Translations under genes and position numbers: made by a program
In this document: in pieces, positions 12,972 through 58,108 of the stretch
How the letters are laid out: each line of letters opens with the position of its first letter
Position numbering within the stretch: position 1 is the stretch's first letter
The notes under the pieces: model-generated
Told to the model about the DNA's origin: nothing
What the model saw: the letters and a program-made list of their open reading frames with translations, nothing else
Databases searched by the model: none
Assembly (NCBI GenBank): GCA_947627465.1
Contig: CANQWD010000001.1
Location: 16,561 to 80,560 of the forward strand
From: an uncultured Clostridia bacterium
Lineage (GTDB): Bacteria > Bacillota > Clostridia > Oscillospirales > Ruminococcaceae
Direction of reading: 5' to 3'
Length of the DNA: 64,000 nt

Positions 12972-15311
12972 TTACACCGCCTTTAGTTTCGCGGAGGTAT
13001 CTCCCGCGTTTACTTGTACGCTTTCCCCGTCCGCGAGTTTCACCTTGAAAGGCTTCGGCGCTGCGGGGAACGCTGCTTCGATAGTATCTCCGCGGCGAAC
13101 CGCTTTAAGCTCGAATATCTTGTTTGCGTCGGTATCATAGATCGGCGCGGTGATTTCAACGCCGTCGTCGGGCTGATAGATCGTGAATTCCGCGTTCTCA
13201 AGATAATCGTATTCAAAACCGCGCTTGAAGTCGCCGTAAGCGATTATCGAATTGGGTTTCGCGAGACACGGAAGTCCAAAGTAATCATAAGTTTCTTTAT
13301 AGAATTTACCGCCTTCGTAAACTTTGCCGCTGATTATGTCCGTCCACTTGCCCTCGGGGAGATAGAACTCGCCCAAACCCTTATCGTTGCAAATTGGAGC
13401 GACAAGGATATTGTCTCCGAACATATACTGACGGTCGAGGGTATGGCACGCGGGGTCGTTCGAGTAGTCGATAACCATTGCCCTCATCATCGGAACGCCC
13501 GTGTTGTGGGTCTTTATCGCCTGTGCCCAGAGGTACGGCATAAGTCTGCCTTTAAGTTTTGTAAAGAACCTTAATACATCCACCGCCTCGTCGTCGAACA
13601 GCCACGGAACGCGGTAGGACGAATTGCCGTGAAGTCTGGAATGCGACGAGAGCAGTCCGAACGCGCTCCAACGCTTGTAAATATCGGGAGTGGCGGTCGC
13701 TTCAAAGCCCGAGATGTCGTGACTGAAAAATCCGAAGCCGCTCATGCAAAGCGACAAACCGCCGCGTATCGTTTCAGCCATAGAGGTGTATTCAGCCGAG
13801 CAGTCGCCGCCCCAATGTACGGGGAACTTCTGCCCGCCGACGGTCGCCGAACGAGCGAACAGGCACGCTTTGTTTTCGCCGTAAAACTCTTTCAGCACGT
13901 TGAACACGGTTTTGTTGTAAAGATAGGTGTAATAATTGTGCATAGCAACGGGGTCGGAGCCGTCGAAGTATTTAACATTGGTCGGGATACGTTCGCCGAA
14001 GTCGGTCTTGAACGTGTCCACGCCCATTTCGCAGAGTTTTTTGAGCTTCCCCGCATACCACTCGCAAGCGGCGGGGTTGGTGAAATCGACTATCGCAAGC
14101 CCCGGCTGCCACATATCGCACTGGAACACGCTGTTGTCGGGATTCTTTATCAGATATCCGCCCTGTTTGCCCTCCTCAAACAGCGGCGAACGCTGACCGA
14201 TATACGGATTTATCCAGACACAGGTTTTTAGCTGCTTATCGGTTTTCAAGCGCTTCAGCATCGCGGCGGGGTCGGGGAACTGCCGCTTATCCCAATCGAA
14301 ATCGCACCATTGGAACTCTTTCATCCAGAAGCAGTCGAAGTGGAACACCTCAAGCGGGATATCGCGCTGTGCCATTCCGTCAATGAACGACGTTACGGTC
14401 TCCTCGTTGTAATCCGTGGTGAACGAGGTGGTGAGCCACAGCCCGAACGTGAACGCGGGCGGGAGAGAGGGCTTTCCGGTAAGATCGGTGTAGTTTTCGA
14501 GAACCTCCGCGACGTTTTCCCCGCCGATAACAAAATACTCCAAGGTTTCTCCGGGCACGGTGAACGACACCTTTGAAACGGTATCGGAGCAGACTTCAAA
14601 CGACACGTTATCCAAGGAGTTTACGAAAATTCCGTAGCCCTCGCTCGATACGTAAAACGGGATAGACTTATACGACTGGTCGGAGCAAGTGCCGCCGTCG
14701 CTGTTCCAGATCTGCACGGTCTGACCGTTCTTGACAAACGGTGTGAACTTTTCGCCGAAGCCGTAGAAATACTCGCCGACGTTCATTGAAAGCTGTTCGC
14801 GAATATAAGTCGTTTTCTCGTTACGCGGGTAATCCCAGAACGTGTTGTCCTGTGTTGCGTCAAGGCGAGCCGACTTTATAAACTCGCTTTCCGTGATAAC
14901 GGATGCGCTTCTCCACGCGCCGCCCGTCAAGCGCTTATCCTTGTAGTAATACTGAACGCTGTAACTTCCTTTTGCGATAACGACTTTGGTGTCGCCCGAA
15001 ACAATCTCCCAGTCGTTTTCGTTTTCCTTTATCTCGGGCTTGAAGCCTTGATCTTCGTTAAGCTCAAAGCGCGGAACGTTGTCCAAGCCGCCTTTGTAGT
15101 GCACTATCGACACCTTGATAACGTTCTTTTGCGTTGAGGTGAACGTTATATCGAGGCACGGTCCGCCGAGGGTTTGCCCTCTGTTCTGAATATACTGCGT
15201 GGGAACGTAAACGTTAAGTCCGTTTTCCACGGGCGTTATCTCATAGCTTTGAGCCGCGTAGTTTACGTCGTAACCGCGCTTGTTGAGCCAAAATCCGTCC
15301 GAAAATTTCAT
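12972..15311 (-). CDS. yicI: Alpha-xylosidase, GH31 (YicI-like)
   Basis: MKFSDGFW start, FGLWLTTSF, FHFDCFWM, FKTDFGE nucleophile, HWGGD, SHDISGFE. Confidence 0.92.
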   Translation of the reverse strand: MKFSDGFWLNKRGYDVNYAAQSYEITPVENGLNVYVPTQYIQNRGQTLGGPCLDITFTSTQKNVIKVSIVHYKGGLDNVPRFELNEDQGFKPEIKENENDWEIVSGDTKVVIAKGSYSVQYYYKDKRLTGGAWRSASVITESEFIKSARLDATQDNTFWDYPRNEKTTYIREQLSMNVGEYFYGFGEKFTPFVKNGQTVQIWNSDGGTCSDQSYKSIPFYVSSEGYGIFVNSLDNVSFEVCSDTVSKVSFTVPGETLEYFVIGGENVAEVLENYTDLTGKPSLPPAFTFGLWLTTSFTTDYNEETVTSFIDGMAQRDIPLEVFHFDCFWMKEFQWCDFDWDKRQFPDPAAMLKRLKTDKQLKTCVWINPYIGQRSPLFEEGKQGGYLIKNPDNSVFQCDMWQPGLAIVDFTNPAACEWYAGKLKKLCEMGVDTFKTDFGERIPTNVKYFDGSDPVAMHNYYTYLYNKTVFNVLKEFYGENKACLFARSATVGGQKFPVHWGGDCSAEYTSMAETIRGGLSLCMSGFGFFSHDISGFEATATPDIYKRWSAFGLLSSHSRLHGNSSYRVPWLFDDEAVDVLRFFTKLKGRLMPYLWAQAIKTHNTGVPMMRAMVIDYSNDPACHTLDRQYMFGDNILVAPICNDKGLGEFYLPEGKWTDIISGKVYEGGKFYKETYDYFGLPCLAKPNSIIAYGDFKRGFEYDYLENAEFTIYQPDDGVEITAPIYDTDANKIFELKAVRRGDTIEAAFPAAPKPFKVKLADGESVQVNAGDTSAKLKAV

Positions 15312-15332
15312 AATGTATCCTCCTTATTTAAA

Positions 15333-15448
15333 AAATTTCAAAATCTCGTCTAGCTTACTCACTTCGCTCACTTCGTTCGCTCCATTCGCAAGCTATTCGA
15401 GACCGGTCAAAATTTTGCAAAGCAAAATTTTGACACTTTTTGAAATTT
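15333..15448. repeat. Multi-stem palindromic intercistronic element
   Basis: Outer inverted repeat AAATTTCAAAA / TTTTGAAATTT; perfect 13-bp hairpin GTCAAAATTTTGC-AAA-GCAAAATTTTGAC; loop motif shared with the pheS-leader repeats. Confidence 0.65.
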
Positions 15449-15487
15449 ATGCGCCGCCAAAGCGTTGATTAGAATTTAAAATCTGCT

Positions 15488-26829: not shown

Positions 26830-27023
26830 GGCAACACCGCGCAATTACCGGCTAACGCCTTTGCCGCCCGCTTGCTTGCATATTTTCCGTCATATTGCAC
26901 AATTCGTCCTCGCAAGGCGTCAGCCTTGCTTCGTCCTCATTGTACAAGTGTTGAGCAAAGCTCAACCCGCTGACAGAAAAATCTGACTGCGCAATCGGAC
27001 AGCAATAATTGTGCGGTGTTGCC
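26830..27023. mobile_element. 194-bp MITE, copy 1
   Basis: 18-bp terminal inverted repeats (one mismatch), ATAG duplicated on both sides (26826-29, 27024-27); 3 differences from the copy at 48014. Confidence 0.88.
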
Positions 27024-48013: not shown

Positions 48014-48207
48014 GGCAACACCGCACAATTACCGGCTAACGCCTTTGCCGCCCGCTTGCTTGCATATTTTTCGTCATATTGCACAATTCGTCCTCGCAAG
48101 GCGTCAGCCTTGCTTCGTCCTCATTGTACAAGCGTTGAGCAAAGCTCAACCCGCTGACAGAAAAATCTGACTGCGCAATCGGACAGCAATAATTGTGCGG
48201 TGTTGCC
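48014..48207. mobile_element. 194-bp MITE, copy 2
   Basis: Perfect 18-bp inverted ends GGCAACACCGCACAATTA; TTAA duplicated at 48010-13 and 48208-11. Confidence 0.9.
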
Positions 48208-48309: not shown

Positions 48310-49299
48310 ATGGAGAAGATTGCATTTTTTGACGCGAAGCCGTATGATAAAGAATGGTTTGATAAGATCAACAAGAAGTACGAGATAATTTATTACGAAA
48401 GCCGTCTGCGCCCCGAAAGCGCGCGGCTTGCGGAAGGCTGTAAAGCGGTTTGCGCGTTTGTAAACGATGTGATAAACGCCAAAACGATCGATACTCTTGC
48501 GGAACTTGGAGTCGAGGTGCTTTTGATGAGGTGCGCGGGCTTTAACAATATCGCGCTCTCCGCCGCAAAGGACAAGCTGAAAATTCTGCGCGTGCCCGCG
48601 TATTCGCCTTACGCCGTTGCCGAGCACGCAATGGGAATGATACTCGCGTTGAACCGCAAGATACCGCGCGCCTATATACGCACGCGCGACTTCAATTTCA
48701 GTCTGGTCGGACTTACGGGCTTCGATTTGCACGGGAAAACGGCGGGCGTTATCGGCACGGGCAAGATCGGACAGGCGTTTATCGATATCTGCAAGGGCTT
48801 CGGTATGGAAATTCTCGCTTACGACCCTTATCCCGCGAAAATCGACGGCGTTGAGTATGTCGATACGGACGAGCTTTTCAAACGAAGCGATATTATTTCT
48901 CTGCATTGCCCTCTTACCCGCGAAAACCGTTATATCATAGACGAAAGCGCGATAGGTCTTATGAAAAAGACCGCGCTTATCGTCAACACCTCGCGCGGGC
49001 GGCTTATCGACAGCGAGGCTCTGCTCTCGGCGCTGAACGATAAGAGAATAGGCGGCGCGGCGCTGGACGTTTATGAGGAGGAAAGCGGAATTTTCTTCGA
49101 GGACAACTCCGACAAGATAATCACCGACGAGGTGCTCTCAATGCTCGTCAACCGTCCGAATGTGCTTATAACCTCGCATCAGGCGTATCTTACCGAGGAA
49201 GCCCTGCGCGGTATCGCGGAGGTCACTTTGCAGAATTTCGACGATTATTTGAGCGGCAGGGAACTGAAAAACGAGGTAAAAGCCCAACAAAGTACTTGA
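48310..49299 (+). CDS. D-isomer-specific 2-hydroxyacid dehydrogenase (D-lactate dehydrogenase-like)
   Basis: RCAGFNN, YSPYAVAEH, GVIGTGKIG, SLHCPLT, NTSRG, ITSHQA. Confidence 0.9.
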   Translation: MEKIAFFDAKPYDKEWFDKINKKYEIIYYESRLRPESARLAEGCKAVCAFVNDVINAKTIDTLAELGVEVLLMRCAGFNNIALSAAKDKLKILRVPAYSPYAVAEHAMGMILALNRKIPRAYIRTRDFNFSLVGLTGFDLHGKTAGVIGTGKIGQAFIDICKGFGMEILAYDPYPAKIDGVEYVDTDELFKRSDIISLHCPLTRENRYIIDESAIGLMKKTALIVNTSRGRLIDSEALLSALNDKRIGGAALDVYEEESGIFFEDNSDKIITDEVLSMLVNRPNVLITSHQAYLTEEALRGIAEVTLQNFDDYLSGRELKNEVKAQQST

Positions 49300-49324
49300 C
49301 AAACTTCGCGGAATGTGATATAAT
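49296..49324 (+). promoter_or_regulatory. Consensus sigma-A promoter of pheST
   Basis: TTGACA, 17 bp, TG-N-TATAAT. Confidence 0.88.
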
Positions 49325-49329
49325 GAAAT

Positions 49330-49571
49330 CGGCGTTGAAGATGTGTAAGTAGATTTTCGTAAGCCGTCCGCAGAGAATGAACGTCAGCGGCTGAGAGCGT
49401 TCAGGCGGCGCGAAAGTTGAATTTCAGCATTGGAGCTTTCTGCGAGAAACTAAGCGGACGTTCGCCGCGTTAAGGCGTTTTGAGAGTGTGAAGCAATTCA
49501 CAAATTTGGGTGGTACCGCGGATCGTTAAAGAATTATCCGTCCCAAAGTCTTTGACTTTGGGGCGTTTTTT
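49330..49571 (+). ncRNA. T-box riboswitch (Phe)
   Basis: AGTA, AGAGA and GCTGAG stem-I motifs, candidate TTC specifier (GAATTTCAG), T-box AATTTGGGTGGTACCGCG at ~49503-20, terminator hairpin plus T-run at 49539-71; upstream of pheS. Confidence 0.9.
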
Positions 49572-49590
49572 GTTATTTCAACGCAGAAAA

Positions 49591-50057
49591 AGCGCATAAA
49601 ATTTGCGAAAGCGAGTGACGTTGTGCACTCGAAACGGAGCGAAGTGAAGTGAAGAGTGCGCAATGTCGCTCGGCTAGCGAACGGAGCGCGAAGCGCGTAG
49701 AGAGCGGTTCGCAAATTTAAAATTTAAAGTTCGCGAATTTAAAGCAGCGTAAAAGCAGCGCATAAAATTTGCGAAAGCGAGTGACGTTGTGCACTCGAAA
49801 CGGAGCGAAGCGAAGTGAAGAGTGCGCAATGTCGCTCGGCTAGCGAACGGAGCGCGAAGCGCGTAGAGAGCGGTTCGCAAATTTAAAATTTAAAGTTCGC
49901 GAATTTAAAGCAGCGTAAAAGCAGCGCATAAAATTTGCGAAAGCGAGTGACGTTGTGCACTCGAAACGGAGCGAAGCGAAGTGAAGAGTGCGCAATGTCG
50001 CTCGGCTAGCGAACGGAGCGCGAAGCGCGTAGAGAGCGGTTTGCAAATTTTAAATTT
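49591..50057 (+). repeat. Tandem array of about 2.8 copies of a 166-bp palindromic unit
   Basis: Units start at 49591, 49757 and 49923 and are near-identical; each is bounded by AAATTTGCGAA / TTCGCAAATTT. Confidence 0.92.
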
Positions 50058-50073
50058 AGATAAGGAGAAGAAA

Positions 50074-51093
50074 ATGAAAGATTTCAGCGAGATCAAAGAG
50101 CAGGTTAAACAGGTGCTCGGGGAAGTCGCGGACGGCGTTCAGCTGTCGGATTTCTGGCAGAAGTACCTTGGAAAAACGGGAGTAATTTCCGGTTTGATGA
50201 AAGAAATGAAAACCGTGCCGCCCGAGGAAAAACCGACGTTCGGCAAGGCGGTAAACGACGTGCGCATTTGGGCACAGAATTTGTACAACGAGAAGCAGTC
50301 CGAAATAAAGGAGTATGAGCTGAAAAAGCGTTACGAGCGCGAGACGTTGGACGTCACTATGCCCGCCTTAAAGCGCCCAACGGGTAATCTTCACCCGATA
50401 ACGCTTATAACTCAGCAGATGATAAGCGTGTTCGCGGGAATGGGATTTGAAGTATTGGAGTACCCCGAGGTGGAGGACGACGACCACAATTTCACGCGCT
50501 TAAACGTGCTTAAAGACCACCCGTCGCGCGATATGCAGGACACGTTCTGGCTCACCGAGGACTTGCTTTTGAGAACGCACACTTCTCCGGGACAGATACG
50601 CACAATGGACGCGGAAAGACCGCCCATAAAGGTTCTCGTGCCGGGCAAAGTGTTCCGCTCGGACAGCGACGCTACGCACTCGCCGATGTTTATGCAGATG
50701 GAGGGTTTGGTGGTCGACAAGGGCATAAACCTCTGCGATTTGCAAGGCATGCTCGACCAATTTGTAAAGCAGATGTTCGGCGACGGCACAAAAACGCGTC
50801 TGCGCCCGAGCTACTTCCCGTTTACCGAACCGTCCGTCGAAGTCGACGTTTCGTGCTTCGAGTGCGGCGGTAAAGGCTGTTCGCTGTGCAAGGGCACGGG
50901 TTGGATAGAAGTTCTTGGCGGCGGCGTTGTCAACAAAAAGGTGCTCGAAAACTGCAATATTGACCCCGAGGAGTATTCGGGCTTGGCGTTCGGTATCGGC
51001 GTGGAGCGCATTACAATGCTGAAATACGGCATTCCGAATATGGGAATGTTCTTCGCGAACGATGTGGATTTCTTGAAACAATTTAAGGCGTAA
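50074..51093 (+). CDS. pheS: Phenylalanine--tRNA ligase alpha subunit
   Basis: [40 protein letters not shown]; AAGGAG RBS before ATG 50074. Confidence 0.97.
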
Positions 51094-51105: not shown

Positions 51106-53514
51106 ATGAAAATACTTTTCAGTTGGTTAAAGGATTATGTCGATATAGAGTGTCAGCCCTTGGAGCTTGTGGACAAGCTGTTCGGCGCGGGCTTTGAGGT
51201 CGAGGAAACGAAATATCTCGGACAGGACATTGAAAAAGTGGTAGTCGGCGAGGTCACGTCTATCGAGAAATACGAGGGCACGCACCTTTATATTTGCCAT
51301 GTAAACTGCGGCGAATACGGCGCGGACAACGTGATACTCACGGGCGCGGACAACGTGTTTAAGGGCGCGAAAGTACCCGCGGCGGTGGTCGGCGCGAAAC
51401 TGCCGGGCGGAATTGAAATTCAGCCGCGAAAAATGGCGGATATGATGAGTTACGGAATGCTGTGCTCGGGCGGCGAGCTGGGAGTTACCGAGGATTGGAT
51501 AAAGGGCGCGGACGTTCACGGTATCCTGATGTTGCCGAGCGGCGCGAACGTTGGCGAGGACATCAAGAAAACTCTTGACCTTGACGATTATGTGTTCGAC
51601 ATCTCGATAACAGCCAACCGCCCCGATTGTCAGAGCGTTCTGGGCATAGCGCGCGAAGTCGCGGCGTTCCTCGGAAAGCCGCTTAAGGAGCCGGATTACT
51701 CGTTCACGCGAACGGACGTTACAAAGCCCGAGATTTCCGTGGAAATTGAAGCGCTCGACCTTTGCCCGCGCTATCTGGGCGACTACATTTACGAGGTGAA
51801 GCATTTTGAGAGCCCGCAGTGGATGAAGCGCAGACTTTCCGTGTGCGGTTTTTCGTCTATCGACGCTATTGTTGATATAACTAACTATGTGCTTTTGGAA
51901 ATAGGTCAGCCTATGCATGCTTACGATTTGGACACCTTGGACGGCAAATCTATTCTCGTGCGCCGCGCTAAAGACGGCGAGAAAATAACCACGCTAGACG
52001 AAAAAGAGCGCGTTTTGACGAAAGACAATCTGCTTATATGCGACAAGCACAAGGGCGTGGGTTTAGCGGGAATTATGGGCGGCTTGAACTCCGAGATTGA
52101 AGTCAAGACGAGCGAGATTCTGCTTGAAGCCGCGAAATTCCGCCGCGACAATGTTCGTAAGACCTCGCGCGCTCTCGGACTTCACACCGACGCGGCGGCG
52201 CGTTTTGAAAAGGGCGTTGACGAATACGGCGTTGAATGCGGAATGAACCGCGCTTTGAACCTCGTTGAAAAGCTCGGAGTTGCGAAGATAGGCAATTCTC
52301 ACTTTGACGTTTCGGCGGGCGAGGACAAGGGCGAAGCGAAATTCGATGTGACTGTTGATAAAGTAAATTCCGTCTTGGGAATAGACGTTCCCAAAGCGGA
52401 CATCACGCGCATTTTGAAGTCGCTGATGTTCGGCGTTGAGGAAAACGGCGAAACGCTCTCCGTAACCGTTCCGCGCTGGAGAACCGACGTTGAGAATTAT
52501 CAGGACATCGCCGAGGAAGTTATCCGCGAATACGGCTACGACCACGTTATCCCGCGCTTTCTGGACAGCGCAAAGGTCACGAACGGCGGACTTTCATTCT
52601 TGCAGAACAAGGAGCTTTCAACAAAAGAATACTTCTGCTCTCAGGGCTTTTACGAAGTCAGAACGCTTGCTATGTACTCCGAGCACGAACTCGATATGCT
52701 GAGACTTCCGAAAAACGCTCCCGAGCGCAATGTGATAAAGCTGTTAAATCCGATAACCGACAATCTCTCGATTTTGAGAACCGTGCTCGCGCCCTCAATG
52801 ATAAACGTTATCGCCGACAACATCAAAAACGACTGTTCGGCGGCGCGTTTCTTTGAGATAGCTAATGTGCATATTCCCAAGGCTCTGCCGCTTACGGAAG
52901 CGCCCGAGGAGCGCAAGGAACTGTGTCTGGGCGTTTACGGCGCGGACGAAACATTCTTCACGCTTAAAGAAGCGGTCGAGGGCTTTGCGGCGGCGAACGG
53001 CTTAACGTTCAGATTTGAGCGCGGCGAGTGCAGTTATCTCCACCCCGGAATTTGCGCGGATATTCTCTGCGGCGGCGTTAAGATAGGTCAAATGGGCAAG
53101 CTGCGCTACGAGATAGTAAACGATTTGAACATCGCCGAGGGCAAGAAGTCCGACCTTTCGATTTTCATTGCGGAGATTAACTACTCCGCGATAGAGGGGC
53201 TTTACAAGCGCGAGATGAAGTTTACCGCCGACAACGGCAAGCTGAAAGCGAAGCGCGACATTTCGCTTATCTGCGACAAGAAAACGCTCTGCGTGGAGAT
53301 AGAGGACGTGATAAAGTCCGTAAGCGCGAAAGCCGCCGACGTCAAACTCATTGACAGTTTCGAGAGCGAAAAGCTGGGGCTTGGCAAGAAGTCGCTGACG
53401 TTCACGATAACCTACGCGGACAATGATGACGTTACCGACGAGATCGCCGACAGCGAGACCGATACGATAGCGAGTGCGCTTAACGACAAGCTCGGGGCGG
53501 TTCGGAGAGTATAA
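51106..53514 (+). CDS. pheT: Phenylalanine--tRNA ligase beta subunit
   Basis: SITANRPDC, DITNYVLLEIGQPMHAYD, RFEKGVD; follows pheS. Confidence 0.96.
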   Translation: MKILFSWLKDYVDIECQPLELVDKLFGAGFEVEETKYLGQDIEKVVVGEVTSIEKYEGTHLYICHVNCGEYGADNVILTGADNVFKGAKVPAAVVGAKLPGGIEIQPRKMADMMSYGMLCSGGELGVTEDWIKGADVHGILMLPSGANVGEDIKKTLDLDDYVFDISITANRPDCQSVLGIAREVAAFLGKPLKEPDYSFTRTDVTKPEISVEIEALDLCPRYLGDYIYEVKHFESPQWMKRRLSVCGFSSIDAIVDITNYVLLEIGQPMHAYDLDTLDGKSILVRRAKDGEKITTLDEKERVLTKDNLLICDKHKGVGLAGIMGGLNSEIEVKTSEILLEAAKFRRDNVRKTSRALGLHTDAAARFEKGVDEYGVECGMNRALNLVEKLGVAKIGNSHFDVSAGEDKGEAKFDVTVDKVNSVLGIDVPKADITRILKSLMFGVEENGETLSVTVPRWRTDVENYQDIAEEVIREYGYDHVIPRFLDSAKVTNGGLSFLQNKELSTKEYFCSQGFYEVRTLAMYSEHELDMLRLPKNAPERNVIKLLNPITDNLSILRTVLAPSMINVIADNIKNDCSAARFFEIANVHIPKALPLTEAPEERKELCLGVYGADETFFTLKEAVEGFAAANGLTFRFERGECSYLHPGICADILCGGVKIGQMGKLRYEIVNDLNIAEGKKSDLSIFIAEINYSAIEGLYKREMKFTADNGKLKAKRDISLICDKKTLCVEIEDVIKSVSAKAADVKLIDSFESEKLGLGKKSLTFTITYADNDDVTDEIADSETDTIASALNDKLGAVRRV

Positions 53515-57601: not shown

Positions 57602-57754
57602 GAAGTAATTCATAAAAACACATAAGCGGAGCACGCCGCCGAGACGGTGAAGCGGAGCGGAACCGTTTTAGCAAGGCGAGAGCGGATATTCGGAGCGAAA
57701 GCGGAGAATATGCGCGCGGTGCGAAGCGATTTATAAATAAGGAGGACAATCACA

Positions 57755-58108
57755 ATGGCACGTGTTAAGGGCGCACTTGCTACGCGCAAGAGAAGAAATA
57801 AAACCTTGAAGCTCGCGAAGGGCTATTGGGGAGGTAAGAGTAGACTTTTCAAGACCGCTAAGGAAGCGGTGATGAAGAGCGGTCAATACGCATACATCGG
57901 CAGACGTTTGAAGAAAAGAGATTTCAGACGCTTGTGGATCACCAGAATTTCGGCGGCTTGCAAGGCAAACGGCATGAACTATTCCACATTTATGAACGGT
58001 CTCAAGAAAGCGAACATCACGCTTAACAGAAAGATGCTCTCCGAGATCGCAATTAACGACGCGGCGGGCTTTACGGCGCTTACCGAGAAAGCTAAGGCGG
58101 CGCTTTGA
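57755..58108 (+). CDS. rplT: 50S ribosomal protein L20
   Basis: [35 protein letters not shown]. Confidence 0.97.

Follow-up and report, generated by a model that had tools for sequence, protein, structure and literature searches.

In a 64,000-nt stretch of DNA from an uncultured Clostridia bacterium of the family Ruminococcaceae (hereafter, the window), the leader of the pheST operon carries a tandem array of structured repeat units, located between a Phe T-box terminator and the pheS Shine-Dalgarno (SD) sequence. On balance, we consider it probable that this array is a local, head-to-tail amplification of a lineage-restricted repeat that acts as a leader module at the RNA level. The repeat belongs to a known class, the bacterial interspersed structured repeats, within which it is distinguished by obligatory, sense-oriented docking on the ribosome-binding site (RBS) and by a covarying three-way junction. 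An earlier interpretation of the window, made from the letters alone (the sequence-only reading), had described the array and proposed a dispersed family. It did not include the sense docking on SD sequences (24 of 24 loci), the element-specific tail, the narrow and patchy taxonomic range or the sub-threshold match to the Clostridiales-1 small RNA that we report here.

Tandem Repeats Finder places the array at 49591-50058 (period 166, 2.8 copies, 99% matches, 0 indels), in agreement with the ~2.8 near-identical 166-bp units first noted after the T-box terminator, and reports it as the only strong array in the window. Each unit has an 11-bp outer inverted repeat (AAATTTGCGAA / TT(C/T)GCAAATTT) and purine-rich loops composed of CGNAG pentamers, and GCGAAGC motifs recur at 49688, 49805, 49854, 49971 and 50020. 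These features were seen in each unit, as the sequence-only reading had it; the inner stem that it described also exists, with three G·U pairs on the + strand, and measures 19 bp rather than 14 bp. The predicted RNA fold of a single unit has a free energy of -66.9 kcal/mol (z = -5.95), and that of the entire 525-nt leader -215 kcal/mol (z = -9.7).

The family is present well beyond the pheS leader. We searched the window's own genome (G000; 2.52 Mb in 52 contigs, 97% complete; labels of this form denote sampled species genomes) by BLAST and iterative nhmmer, using a seed that stopped at the outer stem and excluded the SD tail. This genome-wide census yielded 33 units at 24 loci, in three sub-types (A, B and C) that were joined on nhmmer iteration, type A being the pheS type. 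A covariance model based on type A (R1) returned 29 matches in the same genome. Two stem-loops that had been proposed as relatives of the array, at 15333 and 57626, proved to be diverged family members of types B and C, respectively. The former ends in TTTAAATAAGGAGG ahead of the start, at 15311, of a 779-aa gene whose product we take, by our own reading, to be putatively GH31-like; the latter ends in TTTATAAATAAGGAGG ahead of the rplT start at 57755 (L20 by Pfam).

Placement of the family follows a strict rule. All 24 loci are oriented in the sense of the adjacent gene, the last unit ends in (T)TTAAAT-AAGGAG, and the start codon lies 6-14 nt past the match; in related species, 22 of 29 units follow the same sense and SD-docking rule. 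When arrays are considered as wholes, an SD plus start codon is found at the sense end in 22 of 26 and at the opposite end in 0 of 26, the four undocked arrays being truncated by a contig end or lying upstream of a duplicated unit. By comparison, a control family of miniature inverted-repeat transposable elements (MITEs) in the same genome, with 46 full-length copies, occurs in both orientations and has an SD and start within 30 nt of either end in only 7 of the 46. Genes downstream of the elements are mostly housekeeping genes as judged by Pfam (pheS, rplT, dnaK, dnaJ, yidC and tsaD), and others encode a pyrF-type orotidine monophosphate decarboxylase, an aconitase-family protein, a GltD-like protein and a RecJ-like DHH protein, among others. 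About 14 of the 24 loci are intercistronic, with the stop of a same-strand open reading frame (ORF) no more than 50 nt upstream. Six loci are tandem arrays, several of which run to contig ends. A promoter-like site occurs in 1 of 33 elements, compared with 13% in shuffled sequences.

The tail that joins the element to the SD is A/U-rich and specific to the element rather than generic. The motif AAATAAGGAG lies upstream of 15 of 20 element-linked genes and of 12 of 1386 other genes (at least 200 aa), and TTTAAA(A/T)TAAG lies upstream of 12 of the 20 and of 1 of the 1386. Across 54 aligned copies from five species the tail hardly varies, and the bases past its constant AAAT vary between copies (AAGGAG, AAGAGG, AAGGGG, AGGAG and CAGGAG). 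The last pheS unit, which scores 114.5 bits with R1, runs into the tail TAAATTTAGAT. Consistent with an open RBS, the predicted unpaired probability from -16 to +5 is 0.596 for the 20 element-linked genes, compared with 0.453 for 300 others (p = 1.2e-5); 200 other genes that share the AAGGAG sequence reach 0.490 (p = 2.5e-4). The A+T content of the 14 nt before the SD (-26 to -13) is 0.87 in element-linked genes and 0.62 elsewhere.

Several observations in this genome touch on the same subjects. Copies of the control MITE family are ~170-194 nt long, some of them 98% identical, and are found at 26830-27023 and 48014-48207 of the window, at C31:20046-20214 (C numbers denote contigs of G000) and at ~45 other places; one copy on C31 lies directly before a AAATAAGGAG site and start codon. 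At C7:98284-98700, elements of sub-types B and then A stand before identical opening stretches of 15 codons (MARQKHPMAPANNKR); the first leads into a stub of 31 aa, the second into an ORF of 103 aa. This pair of shared gene starts indicates a duplication that carried the gene's start along with the leader.

Single-copy members of the family are predicted to form a three-way junction, with units of ~130-166 nt. The full element includes a conserved short 5' box (GGCGGCGCAT). An A/U-rich outer helix of 10-12 bp (P1) is followed by a two-base AG linker, a hairpin of 12-20 bp (P2) and a further hairpin (P3) that is short in type A and long in type B, and the junction is closed by GG and the 3' strand of P1. 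Both hairpin tips share the module CGNAG-CGAAG-CGNAG, in which the purine loops surround a GCGAAGC mini-hairpin and which we interpret as a GAA triloop, clamped by GC, under a 3x3 G-N-A / G-N-A loop. The loops are also (CGNAG)n pentamer microsatellites whose repeat number varies between copies (49633-49653, 49799-49819 and 15358-15388 in the window), the last of these, a type-B loop, being flagged by Tandem Repeats Finder as well.

Covariation supports the helices. For 18 units of sub-types A and B, aligned plainly with MAFFT, RNAalifold recovered P1, and 6 of its 10 pairs showed compensatory changes. When 10 type-A units were aligned without reference to structure, 94.4% of P1, P2 and P3 cells were paired, as against at most 43.4% with the partners slid, and double changes were present in 20 of 29 pairs, a count equaled in 0 of 500 shuffles. 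Across 52 distinct copies from five species the corresponding figures are 94.8% and at most 43.9%, with double changes in 27 of 29 pairs and 414 compensated cells; this larger alignment was fitted to R1 and is therefore biased toward structure, which the 10-unit alignment is not. Conservation of sequence is seen in the hairpin tips and the 5' box, and covariation in the stems. A gathering-threshold Rfam search of the window was empty, and a permissive one returned only the T-box and the sub-threshold Clostridiales-1 match; neither ribozymes nor riboswitches of known families matched the element. Hammerhead core motifs are absent from the junction strands (AG / none / GG), and we rejected a K-turn in P3 on inspection by eye, as its internal-loop sequences are unlike the bulge and tandem G·A consensus.

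Three asymmetries bear on which strand is under selection. Sense RNA exceeds antisense RNA in stability by a mean of 8.1 kcal/mol, and is favored in 42 of 45 cases (21 of 22 in this genome and 21 of 23 in relatives). Paired columns contain 71 G·U combinations and 27 A·C combinations (p = 1e-5), the latter corresponding to G·U on the opposite strand. A strain-level single-nucleotide polymorphism (SNP) in P3 converts U-A to U·G on the sense strand only. Together, these findings favor the transcript as the target of selection, with the non-template DNA strand a less likely one. An mRNA stabilizer had been among the roles first suggested for the array, and an mRNA-level role is indeed plausible, with structure selected on the sense strand, while stabilization itself is something that we infer.

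We propose that the element would act in cis, within the transcript, as a portable leader module. Its stable junction would shield the RBS from upstream RNA, and an endonucleolytic cut in the single-stranded 5' box could leave the junction as a cap that protects the downstream cistron against 5'-to-3' decay. The unpaired A/U-rich tail and strong SD would then load ribosomes efficiently. With translation start signals kept or improved, insertion would be tolerated before essential genes such as pheS, dnaK, dnaJ, rplT, yidC and tsaD. Tandem arrays would arise by slippage or unequal crossing-over, and in the pheS leader the SD would be served by the last unit only. The proposal leans on paradigms established in Firmicutes, namely 5' stabilizers, RNase Y processing between cistrons and A/U-rich enhancers. 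Neither a promoter-like site nor a second terminator is predicted inside the pheS array, which would leave upstream T-box control intact, and the only + strand ORF through its units is the pheS frame, extended upstream by 31 codons; the period of 166 bp is no multiple of 3. The accessible RBS, the A/U-rich upstream stretch and the lack of a predicted promoter or terminator lead us to favor a cis-acting leader module.

The family has a narrow and patchy range. An R1 search of 25 species of the window's genus and 16 other families of its order found it in 5-6 of the 25 species and in none of the 16 families. Matches numbered 24 in G000 (with stricter filters), at least 72 in each of G006 and G024 (85 candidates scored per genome), 50 in G009, 24 in G010 and 1 in G022, and the family went undetected in the remaining ~19 species of the genus, among them G016, the species nearest to G000. 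The exact P3 motif occurs in 4 of 185,579 species genomes, all of them uncultured Ruminococcaceae or 'Ruminococcus sp.' metagenome-assembled genomes. Filled and empty sites alternate between relatives. The pheS site is empty in G016, whose PheS is 93% identical and whose genome has no family copies, leaving ~25 nt between terminator and SD; it is also empty in the carriers G009 and G024 and occupied in G000 and G006, and G024 has a family copy before pheT. At dnaJ, five species have an empty site, G009 has one unit and G000 at least two. Among relatives with identical L20, the rpmI-rplT spacer is 68 nt and empty or holds one or two units. On a tree, copies cluster by genome (8 label changes, compared with 26.6 in shuffles, minimum 22), indicating lineage-specific expansions. 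This is the behavior of a proliferating repeat and not of an ancient riboswitch. In a separate observation, the terminator-to-SD gap of the G045 pheS leader holds a different palindromic element of ~165 nt, from a MITE family with outer repeat AGAACCTGTCCACATAGCC; that family has copies in G000 as well (C14:7929-8093, C3:112441-112604 and C4:13468-13621).

Such dynamics raise the possibility of a selfish, DNA-level element, an explanation that we hold to be considerably less probable than a leader module and still a serious contender. An enzyme, or copy-choice, would insert the element in one orientation at the 5' edge of an SD; the fold would aid mobilization in the form of hairpins in single-stranded DNA, and whatever it does to the mRNA would be a by-product. 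This type of 'RBS-homing', in which a gene-less structured repeat enters in the sense orientation, by insertion or copy-choice, at the 5' edge of A-rich SDs and endows each gene it hits with a standard insulated leader, its spread depending on recognition of translation-initiation regions, is possible at similarly reduced strength. It would account for the patchy distribution, the high copy number, the clustering by genome and the polymorphic insertion at three sites, and random insertion plus selection would hardly yield docking so strict that the opposite end scores 0 of 26. The SD variants beside the constant AAAT suggest docking on native SDs, and the last 22-25 nt of the 3' end are recurrently duplicated. 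In addition, d(GCGAAGC) mini-hairpins are extraordinarily stable and their RNA versions far less so (review, PMC13037366), which upholds the stability that the sequence-only reading had ascribed to the motif in single-stranded DNA. However, we found no transposase with matching ends, and enzymes of the Y1 HUH type are excluded in four of the five carriers. The linkers differ between arrays as slippage predicts, and not as site-specific integration would; no consistent target-site duplication was seen; and the excess of G·U pairs suits RNA better than DNA.

A particular form of mobility, and the one first envisaged for the array, is a REP/BIME-type element mobilized by a RAYT- or IS200-like HUH tyrosine transposase. 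The elements are palindromic, extragenic and present in high copy number, and the carrier G010 has a Y1_Tnp gene. However, PF01797 is absent from G000, G006, G009 and G024, and the Y1 gene of G010 is not flanked by elements (the best R1 score nearby is 20 bits, on A/T-rich noise), so that the proposed HUH-nuclease substrate with a RAYT- or IS200-type TnpA finds no backing in the carriers. The units themselves, branched structures of 130-166 nt in one orientation relative to genes, are not short inverted REP pairs. We therefore regard this mechanism as very unlikely: the notion of a dispersed, proliferating family holds, and its assignment to the REP/BIME type does not. Among model matches in G000, no pair of element ends lies 0.5-3 kb apart. 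P1 is an 11-bp inverted repeat with conserved non-palindromic sequence outside it on both sides.

Local tandem amplification, as originally proposed, is borne out by the head-to-tail pheS array and by the six arrays in the genome. The linkers of the six arrays differ and have different break points. This variation by locus indicates slippage or unequal crossing-over, and led us to reject integron-like, site-specific tandem integration. The pheS linker is not a simple junction of single-copy flanks; it looks like an element tail, followed by GTTCGCGAATTT and an element 5' extension.

Smaller duplications accompany the arrays. Upstream of an Lrp/AsnC-family gene (C11 ~49850-49990) there is a 44-nt array of the 5' module only (GGCGACGCATAAATTTCAAAA...), its copy number being 3 in this genome and 4 in a different sample. 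At C15, C31 and C12 the 5' box has partial duplicates upstream, and the last 22-25 nt of the element (P1 3' strand and tail) are duplicated at C1:114740-114790, at C13 ~51275-51300 and at 49708-49740 of the window. This recurrent 22-25-nt duplication may be a footprint of element copying or of slippage.

To what extent the pheS copy number is fixed can be gauged from seven independent metagenome contigs that encode identical PheS. Three contain exactly one unit, with a spacer of 442 nt rather than 774 nt (a difference of 2 x 166); one, from another sample, has the same linker and at least two units; and three end partway through the last unit. The version with one unit joins the private SNP of unit 1 (GAAGTGAAG) to the 3' end of unit 3, and these sites lie ~65 nt apart, a distance at which collapse by an assembler using k = 55 would mimic a genuine one-unit allele. 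The tandem structure appears in a second independent assembly and is thus not an artifact of one assembly. The copy number at pheS is accordingly uncertain, and could be one in some strains; it is at least 2.8 in the present assembly. More generally, same-species samples, identified by contigs encoding identical proteins, show the same insertions and differ in copy number only.

The tandem register also produces a resemblance to the Rfam small RNA Clostridiales-1 (RF01699), of which the units might be copies, as independent non-coding RNA genes. The 166-nt unit aligns with positions 1-166 of the 166-position model, including all helices and a similar GGAG.GCG.AGC.CG.AG hairpin, with E = 9e-4 at genome scale. 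Scores, however, are 26.8, 26.7 and 21.0 bits against a gathering threshold of 48, and one model helix ('hairpin 1') arises only when the tandem linker pairs with P1 of the next unit; an outer stem enclosing three hairpins exists in the tandem register only, single-copy members having two hairpins. Neither single-copy members nor sub-types B and C give an Rfam match, 0 of 300 genomes of the order contain a member over the cut-off, and the best near-match elsewhere (G308, 39 bits) is not linked to an SD. The elements moreover are predicted to lie inside mRNAs, without a promoter or terminator of their own, and we give this identity very little credence. The G308 locus (C11:11368-11476 in that genome) has a similar outer stem, a long hairpin and a GAGCGGAGCGATAGAGGAGAGCGG hairpin, with no SD or start after it and GC-rich GCGCTCCGCAGAGCGC repeats downstream.

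If the leader module binds a single trans factor, protein or RNA, at its CGNAG/GCGAAGC tips or at the GGCGGCGCAT box, dozens of genes could form a single post-transcriptional regulon similar to the REP2 (CREN) contact regulon of Neisseria. Conservation of the tips and box over covarying stems is consistent with this proposal, as is the presence of elements before many housekeeping and stress genes (dnaK, dnaJ, pheS, rplT, yidC and tsaD), and the portion of the literature summarized in PMC3184786 offers a precedent in REP2, a repeat that has an RBS as well as two stem-loops and precedes co-regulated genes. Sister species nevertheless do without the element at the same genes, making any regulon recent and dispensable, and the sets of genes differ between carriers. 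We rejected CsrA-type GGA sites because the middle base of CGNAG differs between copies and GGA is therefore not conserved. No antisense partner locus was seen in the genome and no candidate factor was identified. A dedicated regulon is, in our judgment, unlikely, somewhat more so than a selfish element.

Other considerations temper our preference for an RNA-level leader module. At rplT and pheS the SD proper (TAAGGAGGA... and AAGGAGAA...) is present also in relatives with empty sites, so that the element may dock beside an existing SD instead of bringing one; given these native-looking SDs and the variable bases after AAAT, an element that brings its SD and one that docks on the 5' side of a native SD, at a distance of zero to a few bases, look alike in our data. 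Purine-rich loops and base composition could account for part of the strand asymmetry, a requirement for hairpins at the DNA level would by itself also preserve covariation, and the greater stability of GCGAAGC as DNA than as RNA leaves room for a single-stranded-DNA role. In the folded leader the array linker competes for the P1 5' strand of the next unit, and the array units may not fold as three clean junctions. With regard to spread, no mobilizing enzyme was found, Y1 transposases being the only ones searched for explicitly; no general target-site duplication was seen, an ATAAG direct repeat flanking the type-C copy only; and no precise empty site was found between near-identical strains, as represented by contigs encoding identical proteins. 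R1 is based on type A and the genus survey used stricter filters, such that diverged sub-types in 'non-carrier' species could be missed. Effects on stabilization, processing and translation, together with the mode of spread, are ones that we infer.

The array sits in a leader whose features are collected in the table below along with the two other family members in the window. The T-box includes GGGTGGTACCGCG and a terminator, and relatives have the same leader. Its specifier is probably the Phe codon UUC at 49423-49425, by our own reading of GAAUUUCAGCA. This T-box scores 1.8 bits under the Rfam cut-off of 93, and a gathering-threshold Rfam search of the window consequently reports no RNA family.

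Table. Coordinates in the window of the pheST leader, its repeat units and related elements
Feature	Position	Strand	Details
Sigma-70-type promoter of pheST leader, TTGACA-17-TATAAT	49296-49324	+	12/12 matches, TG extension
T-box leader	49326-49548	+	RF00230, 91.2 bits (cut-off 93), E = 2e-20, full length
T-box intrinsic terminator	Hairpin 49539-49565, with U-run to 49575	+	12-bp stem, then TTTTTTGTTA
Inserted DNA, approximate extent, three head-to-tail elements	49581-50046	+	Ends deduced from the pheS leader of G016, which is empty
Unit 1, 5' box AGCGCAT	49591-49756	+	P1 49599-49609/49708-49718; P2 49612-49630/49654-49672; P3 49673-49705
Unit 2	49757-49922	+	P1 49765-49775/49874-49884; P2 49778-49796/49820-49838; P3 49839-49871
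Unit 3 (last)	49923-50058	+	P1 49931-49941/50040-50050; P2 49944-49962/49986-50004; P3 50005-50037
Linker segment GTTCGCGAATTT	49729-49740 and 49895-49906	+	Near-copy of P1 3' strand
pheS SD, AAGGAG	50062-50067	+	6 nt 5' of ATG at 50074
pheS	50074-51093	+	tRNA-synt_2d, E = 4e-93
pheT	51106-53514	+	B3_4, B5, FDX-ACB domains
Type-B member, outer stem AAATTTCAAAA / TTTTGAAATTT	15320-15458	-	Covariance model 39 bits, E = 7e-5
Type-C member, between rpmI and rplT	57613-57744	+	Covariance model 27.8 bits

Known repeat systems share parts of this organization, REP2, MIRU and pneumococcal BOX coming nearest. The nearest concepts described include REP2 (CREN) of Neisseria and IR-A/IR-B of Borrelia (Morelle et al. 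2003; Dunn et al. 1994), which, in the summary available in PMC3184786, are ~120-150 nt long, lack classic terminal inverted repeats, contain two stem-loops, predicted for the RNA, in their interior and an RBS at the 3' end, and lie directly upstream of ORFs in the sense orientation in some 20-30 copies. The present element likewise has two RNA stem-loops and then an RBS immediately upstream of ORFs. REP2, as described there, carries a promoter and an ATG, whereas a promoter of its own is not a feature of our element (a promoter-like site in 1 of 33, and most copies intercistronic). The element further differs from the description of REP2, the comparison being one of descriptions and not of sequences, in its outer helix closing a three-way junction, its tandem arrays and its Firmicutes host.

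The MIRUs (Supply et al. 1997, as summarized in PMC3184786) are intercistronic, transcribed in the direction of the genes, present at filled or empty sites between species and arranged in variable tandem arrays. Intercistronic placement, operon-sense orientation and variable tandem number all recur here, and sites filled or empty between related genomes (pheS, dnaJ and rplT) are also a MITE-type feature. By that same summary, however, MIRUs are 40-100 bp long with small ORFs overlapping the flanking genes; internal overlapping ORFs of this type are not found in our element, whose period is not a multiple of 3 and which is defined by a covarying three-way junction and an A/U-rich tail on an SD.

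Pneumococcal BOX elements (boxA-boxBn-boxC) are similarly modular, with variable internal tandem modules, an RNA fold and co-transcription (PMC3049150). One of them lies between the two T-box motifs of a trp leader, creating a compound leader of nearly 1 kb (PMC3049150). BOX, RUP and SPRITE, in contrast to our element, are enriched between convergent genes, in both orientations and with no SD docking, and BOX is enriched downstream of genes (PMC3049150). Clostridiales-1, from gut Clostridiales, has 166 positions, an outer stem enclosing hairpins and a purine-rich GGAG...AGC...AG hairpin (Weinberg et al. 2010, PMC2864571), and is listed as not cis-regulatory and of unknown function (PMC2864571). 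The resemblance of our units to it depends on the tandem register and reaches 26.8 of the 48 bits required.

REP/BIME-RAYT systems also comprise extragenic, palindromic repeats that undergo lineage-specific expansion and can stabilize mRNA. Their REPs, however, are short, 20-40-nt hairpins that for the most part lie 3' of genes, frequently as inverted pairs, with a REP-flanked Y1 gene, and none of this holds for the present family. A functional analogy may be drawn with 5' stabilizers and processed intercistronic leaders of Firmicutes, such as those of ermC and aprE, the cryIIIA STAB-SD and cggR-gapA processing. In these a stable fold at or close to the 5' end precedes an accessible SD, an arrangement that shields the cistron behind it and lets genes of one operon be expressed at different levels. 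Each such leader is single and particular to its gene, and they do not make up a multi-copy, mobile-like family.

Small interspersed repeats usually occupy 'safe' places such as 3' ends and gaps between convergent genes, in both orientations, as the MITE family of this same genome does. The leader family has the opposite habit: its placement, unusually strict among bacterial interspersed repeats, is on the few most sensitive nucleotides before the start codons of essential genes, always in the sense orientation and with a covarying RNA fold. In practice, short-read assemblies break at the family, the leaders of core genes acquire variable-number tandem repeats, and the prediction of riboswitches and small RNAs can be misled, as in the sub-threshold Clostridiales-1 match. 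If functional, it would be a natural, portable insulator, stabilizer and ribosome-binding site in one, relevant to the control of operon expression in Firmicutes and as a part for synthetic biology. If selfish, it would point to an unknown targeting mechanism that reads translation-initiation regions.

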